Shown here: in pieces, positions 5,236 to 43,410 of the stretch | Position numbering within the stretch: position 1 is the stretch's first letter | Layout of the letters: each line of letters starts with the position of its first letter | Source of the DNA: Terriglobia bacterium | Lineage (GTDB): Bacteria; Acidobacteriota; Terriglobia; Versatilivoradales; Versatilivoraceae | DNA length: 64,000 bases | NCBI GenBank assembly: GCA_963665655.1 | Contig: OY762429.1 | Location: forward strand, 248,161-312,160 | Direction: 5' to 3' | Program-made: the position numbers and the translations under genes | The notes under the pieces: model-generated | The model's input: only the letters and a program-made list of their open reading frames with translations | Told to the model about the DNA's origin: nothing | Databases searched by the model: none

Positions 5236-7224
5236 TCAGCGCCATTCCTCGGCGCGCTCGGAGAAGATCGTGCCCCCGCTTTCGAACCACTGCGAAAAAC
5301 CAATGGTCCCGTTCGCGGTCAGGCAAGTGATGGCTGCATTCATGGCCCTCCGCAGTGCTTTGCCGGCGGGCGTGTCGGGATAACTGAAGGCCCCCCATTC
5401 GTTGCCCTCCGTGTCGATGGCGGTCACGCGCAGGCCCGCTGTGTCGCGTGTCGTCACCCGGTTGCCCAGCTCCCCCCGTGCCACGGCATCCACGACACCC
5501 CCCAGCAGCGCGCTGATCTGTTCGCTGTCGTTGTTGAAATAGTGCACTTCGGGGCGGCCATCTCCGGCCGGCGCCAGGCGGACACGAGTGGCGATGGCGG
5601 CAGACCCCGTGCCCGCGGCAATGCGCAGAGCCGCCCCGCTGTCCGGCTCTCCGGCGATCAAGACATCGCCGCCGACCAGTTGCACTTGCGTCCCGCTGCG
5701 GAGGAAGCCCTCGGCATCGATGATGCCGGTCAGCTCCAACAGCCGCTTCTCGCCGGTGGTGCCCCGCAGAACGCCCACGCGGTGGTCTGACGTCAGATCG
5801 GCGTGCCGATTGATGACACTCTCCGAGCGCACCAGCAGCGATTGGCGAAAGCTGACATGGGCCAGGCCGAAGCGGATCACTTGCCGCCCGTTTGCATCCC
5901 GGGAGCGTTCAGGCAAAGCGGTGATCCCACCGCCCACCAGGTCGTAACGTTCTTGCGCCGCTTTGAGCCAGATCCCGGAGAAGGGATTGCCGATCCCCAG
6001 CGTGTTGAAGCTCAGCGTTCCCTTTGAAAAGGTCTCGACGGCAGCGACCAGGTCCGGCTCGTAGCCCATCGGTTGATGGCCCGCCGAGGTGATTGAATAA
6101 CTCATCGGATTGAAATCGGTATAGAAACCGTAATTGACGCGCATGTCCGGCAATTCAGCCAGCATTTCCCGGGCCGCCTGGCAGGCGGCCGCGGTCGCGC
6201 CCTTTGGGTCCCCTGAGTCAGTGCCGCACCCGGCAGGCGGGCAATCCAGGTAGATTCCGGCGCCGACCAGCACCGGCAGACTGTGGATCACGACCCGTTT
6301 GACGAAAGCCCTCTTGCGCTGCAGCAATCCGGTGGCCGGATTGTGCGCCCAGTAGTAGAGTGAGCTTTCCCCAAACCTGTCCGCAAGGCCGACCAGGTTT
6401 CGGCCTTTAAGGGCTGCGCTGAAATCGGCATCCAACTCGGATTCGCCGAGGCCGTTCCCCTGGTTGTAGGGGTCGCCGGTGAACAACGTGTTGCCATAGG
6501 TGTCCAAGCCGAACAGGTAAATCGAGTTGGTCCTCCAGCGAGGATCGGTCGACAGAGCGACAGTGCCGAAATACCCCTGCGACTCCAGCTCTAGAGCCGC
6601 ACAACGAACAAACTCCTGCAGTTTTTCAGGGGAAGGATCGGCCTCAAGGCCCCTGGCGTTGACTTCTTCCCTCCGGCAGGCGGCCGGGATGTCGCGGGGG
6701 TAGACCCCCGCACCGATCGCAGCCGGCGTCCCCTCCCAGATGAGGCTCTTGAGATAGGCAAACTTCGGTTCATCCCGGCCCGTCTCCGGGTTGGTGAAGG
6801 AGTAATACATCCAGCCCTCGCCGAAGTTGCTCACGATACGGTGCTGTTCCTTGAACCAGTCATTGCCGAAGCCGTCGATCAGGAGCCCCCAGGGAGCCCC
6901 TTCCCTCGATGGATCAGGGGGATAGACGAACGTCGTCGCCTGATGGCTTATGGGGGTCACTTCGTCGACAACGACATAGATCGGGCCGCTTCTCCAGCGC
7001 TCGTCCTCATGAAAGGCCCTGCGGGCTTCCTCGAACCCCACTTCCTGAACGAACTCGTAGGCGCATTGGACGAACCCCCGAACGTCCTCCGGCGTGCGCA
7101 CAGCGCTTGCGGAAACGGAGCGATCCGCACAAGACAACGGTTCAGCGCCCCCCCGGACAACAAAAGCCGTAGCCGCATGGAGCAAGACCAGGAAAATCAG
7201 AAACAGAGAGTTATTCCCTTTCAT
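5236..7224 (-). CDS. secreted tandem Cache-domain / family-3 substrate-binding-domain fusion protein
   Basis: ATG 7224 preceded by AGGAGGAAGG. Signal peptide, two Cache-like repeats (GWMYYSFTNPETGRDEPKFAYLK...IGAGVY; SLYYWAHNPATGLLQRKRAFVK...VGAGIY), then a PBP2/SBP_bac_3-like region (GFYTDFNPMSY...GYEPDLVAAV; HRVGVLRGTTGE). Confidence 0.8.
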   Translation of the reverse strand: MKGNNSLFLIFLVLLHAATAFVVRGGAEPLSCADRSVSASAVRTPEDVRGFVQCAYEFVQEVGFEEARRAFHEDERWRSGPIYVVVDEVTPISHQATTFVYPPDPSREGAPWGLLIDGFGNDWFKEQHRIVSNFGEGWMYYSFTNPETGRDEPKFAYLKSLIWEGTPAAIGAGVYPRDIPAACRREEVNARGLEADPSPEKLQEFVRCAALELESQGYFGTVALSTDPRWRTNSIYLFGLDTYGNTLFTGDPYNQGNGLGESELDADFSAALKGRNLVGLADRFGESSLYYWAHNPATGLLQRKRAFVKRVVIHSLPVLVGAGIYLDCPPAGCGTDSGDPKGATAAACQAAREMLAELPDMRVNYGFYTDFNPMSYSITSAGHQPMGYEPDLVAAVETFSKGTLSFNTLGIGNPFSGIWLKAAQERYDLVGGGITALPERSRDANGRQVIRFGLAHVSFRQSLLVRSESVINRHADLTSDHRVGVLRGTTGEKRLLELTGIIDAEGFLRSGTQVQLVGGDVLIAGEPDSGAALRIAAGTGSAAIATRVRLAPAGDGRPEVHYFNNDSEQISALLGGVVDAVARGELGNRVTTRDTAGLRVTAIDTEGNEWGAFSYPDTPAGKALRRAMNAAITCLTANGTIGFSQWFESGGTIFSERAEEWR

Positions 7225-17069: not shown

Positions 17070-18587
17070 TCACTTGGGTTGGAAGGGTTCCAGCAATCCG
17101 CTCCGGGCAACGGCCTGGGCACCCCGTGTATCGTCGCCCAGGGCAACGGCAGCCCGGTACTGCAGAATGGCCTCCTCCCTGTCGTCGTCCAGATCAAAAA
17201 GTCTTCCCAGATAGATGTAAGCCCATACCTTGACCGAGTCCGGACAGGAATCCGAGGCCACCGTTCTACCGAAATAATCCCTGGCCGCATTCTTGTCACC
17301 GCGGCTGACGGCCACGATGCCCAATCCGTACAAGGCCTGGCCATTACGAGAGTCGTGCCGATCCAACACCAGATTGAACAGCTCGGCGGCCCGCTCCAAC
17401 TCGTCGCTTCCCAGGCTGGACCTGGCCTGGCGAATCAGGCGCTCCACTTCCGTCAGCCGATTCGCCGGGGCCGTCTCCCCGGGCGTTGAACTGCCAGCCG
17501 CCTGCCGGGCTGTCCGAACCGCGGCAATGTCCATCCCCGAGAGCAGCGTTCGATAATACAGTTGAAATCCTTCGAATTCCTTCTCAAACCGTTGCAGGGC
17601 GGAAAAAAAATGGGGGCACAACAGGGCTCCCGAGCGAACAGCCTCATTCAAGGAGGCCTCGGCCTGCTCTTGCGGCAAGCGATCGAGCCTCATCTCCACT
17701 GCCTTGATGAGGCTTTCGGTAACCATCTCCTGCACCCCTTGCCCGGCGCTCTCCGGATGCTCGTTCCCAGCCAGCATGATCTCGTTCAGAGCCTTTCTCT
17801 GTTCAACCGGCAGCGGATATCTGGCGGCAAAGGGATCGAGCAGGAAGTGCAGAAACTGATGGCGAATTCCCGAAATACCGGAAGACTTGGATGGACTGAA
17901 GAGAAAGTAGTAGCTGCTCTGGTAGGTTCGTGCATGGAACGTATTGGGGGGAACCAGGTAATCCGGCACCAGGACCAATTGCCGCCCTCGGTAGACTCCG
18001 GACCGCATCCTGAGATATCCCTCCGTGGTCATGATCATCCGATTGATCAATGGGCGGTATTCCAGGACGGCCCGATCATGAAGGTACTTGTACCGGCTCC
18101 AGACCGATTCAACTCTTGCCTTGGCGTAGAACTCCCCCAGCAGACTCGTCAGTTCGGCTACCGAACTGGCGTCGGGAGGCATCTGACCCGGCGCCAGAAG
18201 CGGCTTGAACTCGGGAGGGCCATCGATGACGAACGCCAGCGAAATATATTTGGTCAGTTCCTTTCGTGGATCTTCTCCTCTGCGACGGGACTCGTAAAAA
18301 TTCTTCAAGCGTGCTTTCAGGCCGGCGGGCAGATTACGAAATTCCCGGGCGATCGGGAGCCCGGCCGGATGAAGCAAGAGCGAGCCCTCATCGAATCCGG
18401 CGGCCCGCAGTGCCCCCAGAACGGTAAACACCCGAATATCGGGCTGAATCAGAATCGAAGGTATTTGGGCCTGGCCCGTGCCAGTTGATGCCAGCAACAG
18501 GATCAGCATTCCGAAGATGCGAACCCCATCCCACAACATTGGCGACAAAAGACTTGTGGACCGGATTGAAAATAAATGGCCGTTCAT
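17070..18587 (-). CDS. exported protein with C-terminal TPR repeats (start uncertain)
   Basis: Signal-like LILLLASTGTGQA, C-terminal TPR motifs (ALYGLGIVA, WAYIYLGRLFDL). Upstream of and co-oriented with rnc. Confidence 0.75.
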   Translation of the reverse strand: MNGHLFSIRSTSLLSPMLWDGVRIFGMLILLLASTGTGQAQIPSILIQPDIRVFTVLGALRAAGFDEGSLLLHPAGLPIAREFRNLPAGLKARLKNFYESRRRGEDPRKELTKYISLAFVIDGPPEFKPLLAPGQMPPDASSVAELTSLLGEFYAKARVESVWSRYKYLHDRAVLEYRPLINRMIMTTEGYLRMRSGVYRGRQLVLVPDYLVPPNTFHARTYQSSYYFLFSPSKSSGISGIRHQFLHFLLDPFAARYPLPVEQRKALNEIMLAGNEHPESAGQGVQEMVTESLIKAVEMRLDRLPQEQAEASLNEAVRSGALLCPHFFSALQRFEKEFEGFQLYYRTLLSGMDIAAVRTARQAAGSSTPGETAPANRLTEVERLIRQARSSLGSDELERAAELFNLVLDRHDSRNGQALYGLGIVAVSRGDKNAARDYFGRTVASDSCPDSVKVWAYIYLGRLFDLDDDREEAILQYRAAVALGDDTRGAQAVARSGLLEPFQPK

Positions 18588-18626
18588 TCTGAATCCAGCG
18601 CCCTGGTGAGAAACGCGGGTTTGAAC

Positions 18627-22068: not shown

Positions 22069-22962
22069 ATGAGAGGTTTTGCAACCGCGATCATGACCCA
22101 CCGCCAAACTCTCCTGACCGTGTCAGCGGCTCTGATGCTGGCGCTTCCCGCGACCGCAGCCCCGCACGACCATCGCGAGGAAAAGATCTTCAACGTCGGC
22201 GATTCGCCCACCATCATCCTTGTGAACTATTCCGGCAGGATCTCCGTCGAGGGCGGCAAGAACAAGGTGGTGACGGTGATTGGGATGAGGCGTTCGGAGA
22301 ATGTCGAAATCGATACCGAAGTCGGACCCAACCGGGTGCGGATCACCAGCCACGTGCTGGACGAGCTGGCCACCGCCGAAAATACGGTGGTGGACTATGA
22401 GCTCTACGTTCCGGAACAATCGAACCTGGAGATTCGATCCAACATGGGCGTCGTTACGGTACACAACATTCGAGGTCAGGTCAGCGTGGACGTGGTTGAG
22501 GCAGAGGTCAAGGTGGCCGGGGTCGAGGGTTACGTCAATGCCTCCTCGATCGGGCGGAAGGCCGTCGAGGTCACCCAGTCCAAGGGAACCATTCACGCCA
22601 CCACGGTGACTGGAGACATTGTGCTGGACCAGTTGGAAAGCGACAATGTCAAGGCCAACTCGACTCTCGGCAACATCACCTATAAAGGGGATTTCATGGG
22701 GGGAGGCTCATACAATCTTTCCAGCACCGACGGTCAGATTTCGGTCATCTGCGACGAGGAAGCCTCGGTGGAGTGGGAAGCCCGGACGGTCAAGGGAAGC
22801 ATCAAGACCAACCTTCCCATCAAGTCGAAGCAGCACCGGCCGCTGTGGCGTGACCGCCATTCGCTATTGGGCACCCTGAACGAAGGTGCGGCAACCGTGC
22901 AGCTCTCCACCTTCAGTGGCCCGATCCAGATCAAACGCCAGTCTTCAGAGGAAGAGTTCTAG
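22069..22962 (+). CDS. DUF4097 family beta-strand repeat protein
   Basis: Signal peptide and repeated S/T-x-x-G-x-I strands (NYSGRI, SNMGVV, TVTGDI, STLGNI, STDGQI, TFSGPI). Confidence 0.85.
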   Translation: MRGFATAIMTHRQTLLTVSAALMLALPATAAPHDHREEKIFNVGDSPTIILVNYSGRISVEGGKNKVVTVIGMRRSENVEIDTEVGPNRVRITSHVLDELATAENTVVDYELYVPEQSNLEIRSNMGVVTVHNIRGQVSVDVVEAEVKVAGVEGYVNASSIGRKAVEVTQSKGTIHATTVTGDIVLDQLESDNVKANSTLGNITYKGDFMGGGSYNLSSTDGQISVICDEEASVEWEARTVKGSIKTNLPIKSKQHRPLWRDRHSLLGTLNEGAATVQLSTFSGPIQIKRQSSEEEF

Positions 22963-23001
22963 CCCCTATTTCTCCAACCCCGCTGAGCTTCACTGAAGGC
23001 A

Positions 23002-23034: not shown

Positions 23035-23577
23035 ATGGAAAGAGACCGTGTCTTTCTGGTCGGCTTCATGGGCTCAGGGAAGTCCACCGTGGGACCGTTG
23101 CTGGCCAAGCGCCTCGATTGGCCTTTCCTGGACCTGGACTCCATGATCGAGGCCTCCTTCGGTGGTCCCATCCACCGAATTTTTGCACACCACGGCGAAC
23201 CCGTCTTCCGTCAGATGGAACGCGATGCGTTGAGGAATCTGGGGCAGTGGAAGAACTGCGTCGCAGCACTGGGGGGTGGTGCATTTGCGGACCCGGGGAA
23301 CCGTCTCCAAGTCAGTAAACTGGGACTATCGGTATTTCTCGACCTGTCCCTGGAGAGTGTGCTGGAGCGATGCCCCCCGGACGGCACCCGACCGCTCCTG
23401 AAGGATCCGGCTTCAGTACGGGAGCTCTACGCCTCCCGTTTGCCCCTGTACCGTCTGAGTGATTTTGAGGTCGACGCCTCCTTGCCCCCTGATACAATAG
23501 TGAGCGCCATCCTGGAAGAGACCCGTTTGCAGCCCTCACCGAGACACCCTGCTATCCCTCCCGACCATGGGCGGTAG
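23035..23577 (+). CDS. aroK: shikimate kinase
   Basis: FLVGFMGSGKSTVG P-loop, DLD, GEPVFRQME, ALGGGAF, TRPLL and RLPLY. Confidence 0.94.
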   Translation: MERDRVFLVGFMGSGKSTVGPLLAKRLDWPFLDLDSMIEASFGGPIHRIFAHHGEPVFRQMERDALRNLGQWKNCVAALGGGAFADPGNRLQVSKLGLSVFLDLSLESVLERCPPDGTRPLLKDPASVRELYASRLPLYRLSDFEVDASLPPDTIVSAILEETRLQPSPRHPAIPPDHGR

Positions 23578-23820
23578 CCCGCATGTCTCACCAAGCCGAT
23601 GAGCCTATGATAGAGCAGCTTTCGTTTTTGACATCTTGCAGCGCTTCGATTGGAGTCTTCAGCGTACGACTGTGCTGGGCGTGCCCTGGCTGGTTCTTTT
23701 CCCCTCAGCGCGCACATGCTCCCTCGACCGTAGAAACCGCTACGCTCTTCGGTCGCGAGCACCCGCTGAAGGGAAAATTCCAGCGCCATCATCACGCCCC
23801 CTGGTGAGACATGCGGGCTA
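23575..23820. mobile_element. MITE: 242 bp plus TA target duplication, perfect 17-bp TIRs (19 bp with TA)
   Basis: TAGCCCGCATGTCTCACCA (23575-23593) and TGGTGAGACATGCGGGCTA (23802-23820) are exact reverse complements. Removing the element and one TA restores an in-frame ATG GGC GGT AGG CCA start for the downstream gene. Confidence 0.85.
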
Positions 23821-24650
23821 GGCCAACCATCCTGCTTACGCTGCTGCTGTTTCTGCATCCATACGGCCTGCTGGCGGAAGGCCCCACGCACCTGCTCCAA
23901 CAGGGGGAGTGCGAGGAGTTGGAGGAGGACCAGGAGCCTCCGCCGATCACATACTCCGGACCCGAACTCGGCCGTTTCCGGGTTTTTTTCGCAGGAAAGG
24001 AAATCGGCCACGAAGACTTCGAGATTTCGGGAAGCGCCAATCGAATCGAAGCCAGCAGCCTCACCCAGCTCACCATCACCCGGGAAGACCCCGTGGAGCC
24101 CCCGGAATATCTGGACGAGGAAGATTACGAGGAATCCCCTCCCCCGGACCGTCCGCCCGCTGAACCGGTGACCTTCCGAATCCAATCCACCCTGCGCTTC
24201 AATGACCTGTTTGAACCGCAGGATTACGAAGTCGTGCAGGATGCGGGCCCCAATCGCATGAGGGCCAAGGTCCAGTTTCTTCCGGATCGAAGTCGTGTTT
24301 CCTATGTTTCGGATGAAGGTGTCGACCGGAAGAGAATCGAATTGAGAAGGGATGTGACCGTCCTGGACGACAACGTCTTTCACCACTATCTGATTCTCTC
24401 CAAACGGTACGATCTCTGCCGGGGCGGCATTCAGGAGTTCTCCGCCTTCGTTCCGCAGCAGTTCCTGGCTGGAGGAGTCAGTGTGTCCGAAATCGGTAAA
24501 GAAGAAGTCGAAATCGAGGATCAATCCCATTGGCTGCGGCGCTTCCTGGTCGACACAGGGGAACTTAAAGTCAATTTCTGGCTGGACAGTAACCTGAAGC
24601 TCAAGAAACTCGCCATTCCGGATTCCGAGGTCGAGGTCGTCCGGGAATAG
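23811..24650 (+). CDS. exported hypothetical protein (beta-rich, DUF6134/DUF3108-like)
   Basis: Signal peptide, acidic Pro-rich insertion, GRFRVFFAGKEIGHEDF...LDDNVFHHY...NFWLDSNLKLKKLAIP. The current ATG lies inside the MITE TIR. Confidence 0.75.
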   Translation: MRARPTILLTLLLFLHPYGLLAEGPTHLLQQGECEELEEDQEPPPITYSGPELGRFRVFFAGKEIGHEDFEISGSANRIEASSLTQLTITREDPVEPPEYLDEEDYEESPPPDRPPAEPVTFRIQSTLRFNDLFEPQDYEVVQDAGPNRMRAKVQFLPDRSRVSYVSDEGVDRKRIELRRDVTVLDDNVFHHYLILSKRYDLCRGGIQEFSAFVPQQFLAGGVSVSEIGKEEVEIEDQSHWLRRFLVDTGELKVNFWLDSNLKLKKLAIPDSEVEVVRE

Positions 24651-24664
24651 ACCGCCTGCTCTCC

Positions 24665-25636
24665 ATGACCCACCGTCGCCCATGCCTAGGTGTTGCCGCA
24701 GGCCTCACCGGTTTGCTCCTTTTCGGAGTCTTCGCCGTCCATCATTCGGGGCAAAGTCTCCGCTTGAGCGGCGATCGGGCATTCTCCCATGTGGAACGCC
24801 TGGTTGCCTTCGGACCCCGACCGCCGGCGTCGCCCGGCATAAGGAAGGCCCAGGAGTACATCACGGACGTTTTGCGTCGACTCCCCCTCGAGGTCGAACA
24901 TCAGAACCTGCTGGCTTCGACCCCCAATGGCAACATCCCCATGAAGAACATCATTGGACGCTCGCGGGGGGACAGGAGCCGGGTGGTGATTCTGGCCAGC
25001 CACTACGATACCCACTTGATGCCGGGCGGGGTCTTTGTGGGAGCCAACGACGGAGGGTCCAGCGTGGGGTTGTTGCTGGAACTGGCAAGGGTGCTGTCCC
25101 TCCGGAAACTGAACTTTTCCTTGTGGTTCGTCTTTTTTGACGGAGAAGAAGCCCAGAAGGCCTGGTCGCGCACCGACAGCCTTTACGGGAGCCGATACTT
25201 TGTGCAACGTCTCAGAGCCAGTGGTCAAACCGGTAGAATCAAGGCCATGATCCTGATGGACATGGTGGGAGACAAGGACCTCGTGCTGGAGCACGACCTG
25301 AACTCGACCCCCTGGCTGATGGGCCTGGTGCAAGAATCCGCCACCGAGTTGGGCTTTGGACAACACCTTTCCGGTAATCCGATGGCCGTGCTGGACGACC
25401 ACATCCCATTTACCGAGGTGGGTATCCCGGCGGTGGATCTGATCGATTTCAAATTCGGACCGAACAACCGCTACTGGCACACACCGCAGGACACGCTGGA
25501 CAAGATCAGCCCCCAAAGCATGGAGCGGGTGGGACAGATCGTACTGAGGACTCTCGAAAAGCTTTCAGCCCGGGGAGTGGAGAGTGAAGAGTGGAGAGTG
25601 GAGAGTGAAGAGTGGAGAGTGGAGAGTGGAGAGTGA
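24665..25636 (+). CDS. M28 family peptidase / glutaminyl cyclase-like protein
   Basis: FGPRPPAS, ILASHYDT, GANDGGSS, FFDGEE, LMDMVGD, DDHIPF and WHTPQDT. The C-terminus runs into a heptamer tandem repeat. Confidence 0.92.
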   Translation: MTHRRPCLGVAAGLTGLLLFGVFAVHHSGQSLRLSGDRAFSHVERLVAFGPRPPASPGIRKAQEYITDVLRRLPLEVEHQNLLASTPNGNIPMKNIIGRSRGDRSRVVILASHYDTHLMPGGVFVGANDGGSSVGLLLELARVLSLRKLNFSLWFVFFDGEEAQKAWSRTDSLYGSRYFVQRLRASGQTGRIKAMILMDMVGDKDLVLEHDLNSTPWLMGLVQESATELGFGQHLSGNPMAVLDDHIPFTEVGIPAVDLIDFKFGPNNRYWHTPQDTLDKISPQSMERVGQIVLRTLEKLSARGVESEEWRVESEEWRVESGE

Positions 25637-25726
25637 AGAGTGAAGAGTGGAGAGTGGAGAGTGGAGAGTGAAGAGTGGAGAGTGAAGAGTGGAGAGTGAA
25701 GAGTGAAGAGTGGAGAGTGGAGAGTG
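25573..25726. repeat. heptamer tandem repeat (RAGAGTG)n
   Basis: 21 consecutive GAGAGTG/AAGAGTG units at 25580-25726, plus a degenerate unit before them. Confidence 0.97.
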
Positions 25727-25864
25727 GAGAACGGTTAGCCGAGGGTTTCGGGAACAGGCGAGCACCTGATGACCTGACTGCGCCTGCTTGATGCAACCCC
25801 GTTTCGCGCTGCACGCGACGGGGTACAAAGAGGCGAAACCGGGGTGTTCCAGGCAGGGGAAGAA

Positions 25865-43304: not shown

Positions 43305-43410
43305 AGCCCGCATTTCTCACCAGGCCGCTGAGCATACGGAAGAGCCGTGTTCGTCTTTAACATCTTGCAGTGCCTTGTTTGGAATCTTCAGCGTACAGAC
43401 TGTGCTGGGC
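43305..43410. mobile_element. truncated diverged copy of the 23.6-kb MITE
   Basis: Manual alignment to 23576-23680 gives 17 mismatches and 1 gap over 106 nt (about 83% identity), including the left TIR AGCCCGCATTTCTCACCA. Confidence 0.8.

Follow-up and report, generated by a model that had tools for sequence, protein, structure and literature searches.

How can a bacterial gene take a transposable element into its first codons and keep a full-length reading frame? The question is raised by a junction in a 64-kb stretch of DNA from a Terriglobia bacterium (hereafter the window; 59.6% GC), where the shikimate kinase gene aroK and a gene for a predicted secreted protein of unknown function (the downstream gene) are separated by a miniature transposable element with inverted repeats (MITE). 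A first-pass annotation had placed this MITE in codon 3 of the downstream gene and proposed that a new start codon, an ATG in the same frame, comes from one of its terminal inverted repeats, so that the signal peptide is untouched. We compared the window with related DNA loci (labelled L###, with W for the window allele and P#### for database proteins), and the proposal held: relatives with an empty site begin MGVRPT, the window protein has the same length, 279 aa, as its closest counterpart among these, P0104, the gene is under purifying selection, the old ATG has decayed in one lineage, and a scar of the element persists in L125. We regard it as highly probable that an IS1380-type MITE inserted at the aroK stop/start junction and that the ATG of its repeat replaced the gene start. 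As far as comparison of sequences can tell, the insertion, the empty site, the IS1380 link, purifying selection, an old ATG that decayed in one lineage and a start that outlives the element can be taken as established. The locus thereby offers a clean natural case of a small transposon landing in a coding start, with the gene surviving, its N-terminus lastingly changed and the intermediates kept in relatives.

The inverted arms of the element, TAGCCCGCATGTCTCACCA (23575-23593) and TGGTGAGACATGCGGGCTA (23802-23820), are 19 nt long, 100% complementary and 208 nt apart; the terminal repeats are perfect over 16 nt (19 nt including flanks). A 17-nt arm has four matches in the window at up to three mismatches, against 0.27 expected, a number reached by none of 100 shuffles. 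Inverted repeats, a target duplication with both empty and filled sites, and a small size without a transposase identify the element as a MITE, and a tblastn search of the window returned no match to an IS1380 transposase. The annotation had described 242 bp with perfect repeats and a TA duplication; the perfect repeats stand, whereas the element proper is most likely 240 bp long with an imperfect 4-bp duplication, GTAG/CTAG. The aroK stop codon TAG (23575-23577) lies inside the left copy of this duplication.

The empty site reads GACCATGGGCGTTAGGCCAACC in L001, L130, L131 and L132, with the start MGVRPT, and has a synonymous form, ATGGGTGTTAGG, in L133; its core is GCGTTAGGCC in L001, L130 and L132 and, again synonymously, GGTGTTAGGCC in L133. 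An empty site had been predicted as ATGGGCGGTAGGCCAACC (MGGRPT), and the one that relatives do carry, ATGGGCGTTAGGCCAACC (MGVRPT), is one base away. In these empty-site relatives the aroK TAG overlaps codons 3-4 of the downstream gene, which confirms the suspected overlap of the ancestral start with the aroK stop; relatives' aroK is also called at 180 aa. Their gene start corresponds to ATG 23567 of the window, which opens just 11 codons there, as had been noted. The downstream protein has about a hundred relatives, the close ones beginning MGVRPT. The window protein is identical to database protein P0114, and it has no further ATG before about residue 150. The exchange is codon for codon, MGV giving way to MRA: ATG, CGG and the first G of codon 3 derive from the element, and the CT of codon 3 and the AG of codon 4 from the right CTAG copy.

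Further filled alleles were found in relatives. L127 and L128 hold the same MITE in the window orientation and keep the 279-aa open reading frame (ORF) intact although their old ATG is now CTG. L126 carries an older copy in the window orientation with decayed repeats, and L004 a 240-bp element inserted in reverse at the same tetranucleotide, which shares module B only with the window copy and is flanked by a perfect CTAG/CTAG. The filled alleles retain ORFs of 278-279 aa free of frameshifts and stops, with ratios of nonsynonymous to synonymous divergence (dN/dS) of 0.17-0.20 at dS 0.34-0.56; for the window allele, dN/dS is 0.17-0.24 against other alleles (dS >0.2) and 0.28-0.35 against the two nearest, L130 and L127. 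The downstream gene is under purifying selection in all filled alleles, at a dN/dS of about 0.2. Because the gene is intact and under such selection in all of them, the ATG supplied by the MITE is very probably its working start, a reading whose basis is comparative.

We propose that a non-autonomous IS1380-family derivative entered a tetranucleotide, TTAG or CTAG, that belonged both to the aroK stop and to codons 3-4 of the next gene, which overlaps it (ancestral ATGGGCGTTAGG). Duplication of the 4-bp target would let aroK keep its TAG. The repeat end had been thought to complete a TAG stop; the target already held that of aroK, which was simply duplicated. Read outward, the right repeat gives GGTGAGAcATGCGGG followed by CTAG and would place its ATG at the old ATG's distance from the target, so that the gene would be translated as MRAR... 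instead of MGVR..., with unchanged length and an intact signal peptide. Ribosomes may reach 23811 either by direct initiation on GGTGA or by relay across a MITE-spanning ORF; in the latter case they would terminate at the new ATG or 3 nt before it and would also open the hairpin formed by the repeats.

Table 1. Features of the aroK junction and other copies of the element in the window
Feature	Positions	Strand	Remarks
Remnant of a related copy	18565..18619	+	3-mismatch repeat with about 35 nt similar to the L004 element's non-B module; arm search
CTAG, then CCCCTATTTCTCCAACC; probably remnant of an old insertion	22959..22979	+	CTAG holds the DUF4097 gene stop; matches 10/12 first repeat positions; sequence comparison
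aroK (shikimate kinase)	23035..23577	+	180 aa from ATG 23035; Pfam SKI, E 6.8e-38
Former start of downstream gene, ATG 23567-23569	23567..23602	+	11-codon ORF MGGSPHVSPSR, then TGA; runs across left inverted repeat
Left target-duplication copy GTAG	23574..23577	.	ancestral target TTAG; left flank of L126 still TTAG
MITE, 240 bp, ends CCCGC...GCGGG	23578..23817	+	module A ~23594-23680, module B ~23668-23801; no transposase
Left terminal inverted repeat CCCGCATGTCTCACCA	23578..23593	+	arm search
74-codon ORF across the MITE	23583..23807	+	ATG in left repeat to TGA 3 nt before ATG 23811; same ORF kept in L127
Right terminal inverted repeat TGGTGAGACATGCGGG	23802..23817	+	GGTGA 23803-23807; new ATG 23811-23813
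Downstream gene, 279 aa, predicted secreted protein of unknown function	23811..24650	+	N-terminus MRARPTILL; ATG within right repeat
Right target-duplication copy CTAG	23818..23821	.	family-wide flank consensus YTAR
Half copy of MITE (repeat and module A)	43305..43410	+	83% identical to element positions 2-106; just downstream of minus-strand rplQ

Target sites and the repeat ATG across the family

Species-representative genomes were scanned with the query pattern CCCGCATNTCTCACCA, which matched at more than 119 loci in Acidobacteriota, Gammaproteobacteria, Planctomycetota and other phyla. The family census draws on about 150 listed ends, with ORF length rather than gene models as its criterion, and all counts of flanks, stops and starts given below refer to the matches listed. 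Spread over several bacterial phyla, the MITE family combines IS1380-type ends with a preference for TAG/TAA stops. Its flanks follow YTAR (CTAG 59, TTAG 26, TTAA 11, CTAA 7), a motif that occurs 85 times in the window (CTAG 23) against about 650 expected from base composition, a ~7.5-fold depletion. Together, aroK and the downstream gene contain one YTAR besides that at the junction, and insertions elsewhere in either would be lethal to that gene. Repeated insertion at the junction is thus explained by the rarity of YTAR, which leaves this site as nearly the sole target in 1.6 kb. A target preference beyond YTAR, suggested by the resemblance of the site ATGGGCGTTAG to the repeat tip ATGCGGGCTAG, was rejected, as the 103 listed flanks show a weak G/C bias at -5 to -7 only.

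The first-pass annotation had further proposed that the outward ATG and the TA-containing tip of the repeat are an evolved trait, allowing insertion at gene boundaries without killing genes. Several findings agree with such a design. For 25 of the 95 listed ends with a YTAR flank, the duplicated TAR is the stop of an adjoining ORF of 150 codons or more, as against 12 and 5 in the other frames. Six Pfam-confirmed genes are in frame from the repeat ATG, which is the only canonical start within the first 26-40 codons in five of them, and the same ATG is present in both repeats, so that either orientation rescues, as in the window and in L004. At L019, paaB ends on the left TAG, and paaC, there 8 residues longer than its homologues, has the repeat ATG as its only canonical start. 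On the other hand, ORFs opened by the repeat ATG show no in-frame excess among the matches listed (18 are 100 aa or longer, compared with 29 for the neighbouring frame; at 200 aa or longer the counts are 13 and 15). The three ATG bases are also the least conserved of the 16 repeat positions in 71 unforced partner ends (79%, 75% and 69%, against 72-93% elsewhere), and several full-length elements have CCCGGAT, without an ATG, at one end. The stop-codon association itself, the part of the proposal that stands, is explained by YTAR choice, since in GC-rich DNA this depleted motif survives mainly as stops. We therefore consider an evolved design unlikely. As the ATG shows neither special conservation nor an in-frame excess, the pattern looks like survivorship rather than adaptation, in which YTAR targeting provides the stop sites and the repeat ATG, as a by-product, decides which gene-start insertions survive.

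Transposase family and target duplication

At L036, L041, L005, L056 and L068, the same ends lie about 1.7 kb apart and mark full-length elements. Two of them, L036 and L041, were translated and scanned with Pfam and NCBIfam. They encode proteins of 455-458 aa that match Pfam DDE_Tnp_1_4 (PF13701; E 1e-155) and score 397 and 414 bits against the NCBIfam IS1380 equivalog NF033539, whose cut-off is 180 bits; L005, L056 and L068 are assigned by ends and size, which match those of L036 and L041. Similarity between the MITE and the full-length elements is confined to the 16-21-bp ends, its interior being unlike those sampled. Because full-length elements with the same ends encode IS1380-family transposases, the window element is an IS1380-family MITE. 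A transposase with matching ends, which the first-pass annotation had recommended looking for, thus exists in the ~1.7-kb elements L036 and L041, and it belongs to a family other than the IS630/Tc1-mariner or IS5 groups named there.

According to ISfinder, IS1380 ends begin with CC and are accompanied by a 4-5-bp direct repeat. For IS1247, a 5-bp direct repeat is listed (PMC3281130). Among the listed matches, seven element pairs have perfect non-palindromic 4-bp duplications (TTAG/TTAG in five, CTAA/CTAA in two), full-length L068 being included, and many CTAG/CTAG pairs exist besides. Mismatched pairs differ at all four positions, as decay of a 4-bp duplication predicts. Given these seven pairs and the spread of mismatches, the duplication most likely comprises the 4 bp of the YTAR target, with element ends that start with CC.

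The alternative is an IS630/Tc1-mariner or IS5-group element with a 2-bp TA duplication and a repeat that begins at G (GCCCGC...GCGGGC). The junction itself counts in its favour and against a 4-bp duplication: GTAG/CTAG is imperfect relative to the ancestral TTAG, the left flank varies as GCG[T/G/C]-TA and the right is always C-TA, so that the 4-bp model needs two substitutions here and the TA model one. TTAG/CTAG, seen in five pairs, also fits TA plus a G...C repeat tip, and targets of the YTAR and CTAG type are a classic trait of IS5 and IS630. However, the TA model predicts neither the seven perfect non-palindromic pairs nor mismatches spread over all four positions of the duplication copies, and all full-length elements found between these repeats are IS1380-sized, with the L036 and L041 transposases above the equivalog cut-off. 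We judge this alternative improbable. The 2-bp duplication had been favoured on exact-match ends and was dropped after relaxed pairing revealed 4-bp duplications. IS630/Tc1-mariner was rejected on account of the IS1380 transposases encoded by the translated partners and the non-palindromic duplications, and IS5, in spite of its similar target, because Pfam DDE_Tnp_1 is a secondary match only (E 3e-16 against 1e-155) and the NCBIfam match is to IS1380.

Family elements also occur in tandem or back to back. Those at L005 (about 119-2079) share a CTAG, L057 holds three units 2267 bp apart (2679, 4946 and 7213), and L116 (around position 6607) is a further such locus. These arrangements are consistent with reuse of an earlier copy's duplication as a target.

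Element loss, recombination and the working start

L125 holds no MITE; it reads GACCATGCGGGCTAGG and keeps the element-derived ATGCGGGCTAG as its start, which is exactly what remains of a window-like allele once the DNA between its two CATG (one at the old start, one at the repeat start) is deleted. Set against L133, its nearest relative with an empty site, it shows changes at +3, +5 and +7 and is otherwise identical for 60 nt downstream, at an overall divergence of 5.3%. L124, which also lacks a MITE at the aroK junction, reads GACCATGCCGGCTAGG, with ATGCCGGCTAGG one base from the L125 scar. We infer that both alleles are scars left when a MITE was lost; their sole start is the ATG derived from the element. 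Alternatively, the MITE-less alleles beginning MRAR, MPAR and MSAR might have arisen by independent point mutations of the ancestral start. The signal-peptide region evolves fast (dN 0.1-0.3 in codons 1-45), and L129 (ATGAGCGCTAGG) is ambiguous, being two substitutions from both the ancestral and the scar sequence. Yet L125 differs at three of five adjacent bases only, with a result that is letter for letter the repeat-derived ATGCGGGCTAGG, and its close relatives hold filled alleles whose repeat CATG offers the microhomology for exactly this 244-bp deletion. We give point mutation little credence as the origin of these alleles.

Exchange between relatives has also shaped the junction. W, L127 and L130 have nearly identical flanks, 1% apart on the left side, and L130 is nevertheless empty. 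To the right, a ~45-nt patch (23822-23870, against 1512-1560 of L130) is ~20% diverged, mostly at synonymous positions, within sequence otherwise 98-99% identical, and the L130 patch is L001-like. The patch indicates a short recombination tract that carried the MITE or the empty allele; an empty L130 with an L001-like patch implies that alleles were exchanged by homologous recombination. A seamless, piggyBac-like excision as the origin of L130 is not favoured, as its patch points to recombination. At 89% identity to each other, against 81% to a copy at another locus, the MITEs of W and L126 probably go back to a single insertion. The element of L004, being reversed and having a different second module, was inserted separately; for the same reason, and with the window's nearest backbone relative, L130, being empty, a single ancient insertion for all filled alleles was rejected. 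The minimum history comprises two insertions, one or more deletions, and recombination.

Gene callers treat the junction inconsistently in relatives, with 253-aa calls at empty sites. Such calls were considered as candidates for further insertions, and L132 turned out to be an ordinary empty site with a late start call. For annotation, the locus thus illustrates both inconsistent start calls and short element scars that can be mistaken for ordinary divergence.

The right repeat presents GGTGA, 3 nt and ATG, in frame with the 279-aa ORF. We take GGTGA to be Shine-Dalgarno-like, a ribosome-binding role presumed from the 3' end of 16S rRNA. The old start probably depended on coupling to aroK, since it has no Shine-Dalgarno-like motif and overlapped the aroK stop.

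Coupling may persist in the filled alleles. In all those analysed, an ORF spans the MITE, with its end at the new start or next to it. Besides the 74-codon ORF of the window, there are 84-codon ORFs in L126 and L004, which start at the old ATG, terminate within the right duplication and restore the ATGNNNNNTAG overlap (in L126 by way of two compensating 1-nt indels). Because the insert adds 244 nt, or 1 modulo 3, the old-ATG frame must meet the right-hand stop. Among ~240-bp copies elsewhere, only about 13% have any given frame open. These MITE-spanning ORFs are suggestive of a translational relay to the new ATG that would also melt the hairpin and, if true, would provide a testable case of translational coupling held across an inserted element.

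Several points weigh against initiation at the repeat ATG as we describe it. On read-through RNA, the repeats form a perfect stem of at least 19 bp that buries GGTGA and the new ATG; its minimum free energy of -118 kcal/mol (z -5.4) would hinder direct initiation. No promoter-like site directed toward the gene was found inside the MITE (plus strand). The start of ribosomes at 23811 is itself a prediction from sequence, and the relay idea draws on four alleles, to be read against the ~13% background of open frames. That the insertion silenced the downstream gene, with an ATG in frame by coincidence (a chance of 1 in 3) and an ORF intact only through recency, would suit this masking hairpin and the still perfect window repeats, which could mean a young insertion, and is nonetheless very hard to believe in view of the divergence and intact, constrained ORFs of the filled alleles, the age of the decayed L126 copy, the decay of the old start in L127 with retention of the new ORF, and the use of the element-derived start without the element in L125 and L124.

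Takeover of the start by the repeat ATG might form part of a longer, 'hit and run' course of events, which we advance tentatively and hold to be somewhat less than an even bet: a MITE end takes over the start, the old ATG decays, and a microhomology deletion leaves the last 11 nt of the element, relay ORFs having kept coupling across 244 bp in the meantime.

Known repeats, further copies and neighbouring features

IS1380-family insertion sequences are relatives of piggyBac in prokaryotes. Their transposases serve as the outgroup for piggyBac (PMC10813416), which is specific for TTAA (PMC7351741). The YTAR, TTAA-like target and CCC...GGG tips of the MITE resemble the TTAA and CCC ends of piggyBac. 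With IS1380 insertion sequences, the MITE shares the 16-21-bp ends, the CC start and the 4-bp duplication; unlike them, it has a dissimilar interior, and no transposase accompanies it in the window. No description of an IS1380-derived MITE was found in the literature searched, a limited search that is no proof of absence.

The principle of repeats supplying starts is already known. Repeat elements fused to host ORFs have been reviewed, including 5' extensions by pneumococcal repeats and Bordetella BRE, the ribosome-binding site and ATG brought by Neisseria REP2, in-frame fusions of pneumococcal BOX, RUP and SPRITE, Bordetella BRE and Rickettsia palindromic elements at 5'/3' ends or inside coding sequence, and MIRUs (mycobacterial interspersed repetitive units), small intra-operon repeats whose ORFs overlap neighbouring gene ends (PMC3184786). 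As start-supplying repeats, Neisseria REP2 and the Borrelia inverted-repeat elements invite comparison with the MITE. Like REP2, its repeat is predicted to provide a ribosome-binding motif (GGTGA) and an ATG in frame with a host gene. REP2, however, has no terminal inverted repeats and brings a promoter, whereas the MITE start lies in a transposon terminal repeat, with no promoter detected; here, moreover, empty, filled and scar alleles document the replacement of an existing start. MIRUs resemble the MITE in having their own ORFs overlap neighbours, as the 74- and 84-codon ORFs end at or beside the new ATG, and differ in their size of 40-100 bp, weak repeats and lack of a known parent insertion sequence; for the MITE, a relay function would be the counterpart. 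BOX, RUP, SPRITE, BRE and the Rickettsia elements add or interrupt sequence, whereas the MITE swaps three codons one for one, preserves the upstream stop by its duplication and leaves a start that outlives it. What is new is the IS1380-derived MITE family, as far as the literature searched shows, together with its stop-codon habit and the complete series of empty, filled, old-ATG-lost and scar alleles.

The window contains one full copy of the MITE, one half copy and two remnants (Table 1). The half copy stops at the module A/B junction GACTGTGCTGGGC, and its flank, TTCCA directly before GCCCGC, holds no YTAR. At least three interchangeable modules (A, B and C) make up these mosaic MITEs. Module B is 73-76% identical between gammaproteobacterial (L039, L081, L093, L119) and acidobacterial copies of equal 240-bp length, which is unusually wide for the interior of a MITE. 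One gene upstream of the aroK junction, the DUF4097 gene stop forms a second insertion site that has been reused: L126 (about 649-668) reads CTAGCCCGCATTTCTC there, and L124 (1576-1817) holds a complete 242-bp MITE at the same CTAG.

An Rfam scan of the window gave a tRNA elsewhere as its sole match, and none at the junction. Between the downstream gene and the M28 peptidase gene, extra DNA is present in L132 (1700-2390), L124 (3262-3542) and L133 (2337-2447); no matching repeats were found in it, and that of L132, with its Ns and long homopolymers of G or C, may be an artefact of assembly. In the window, a tandem array of 22 copies of the 7-nt unit GAGTGGA, with 91% matches, lies across the 3' end of the M28 peptidase gene (25575-25730) and encodes ESEEWRV repeats; the peptidase measures 323 aa in the window, against 303-309 aa in relatives, and alignment of the window to relatives breaks down at this array.

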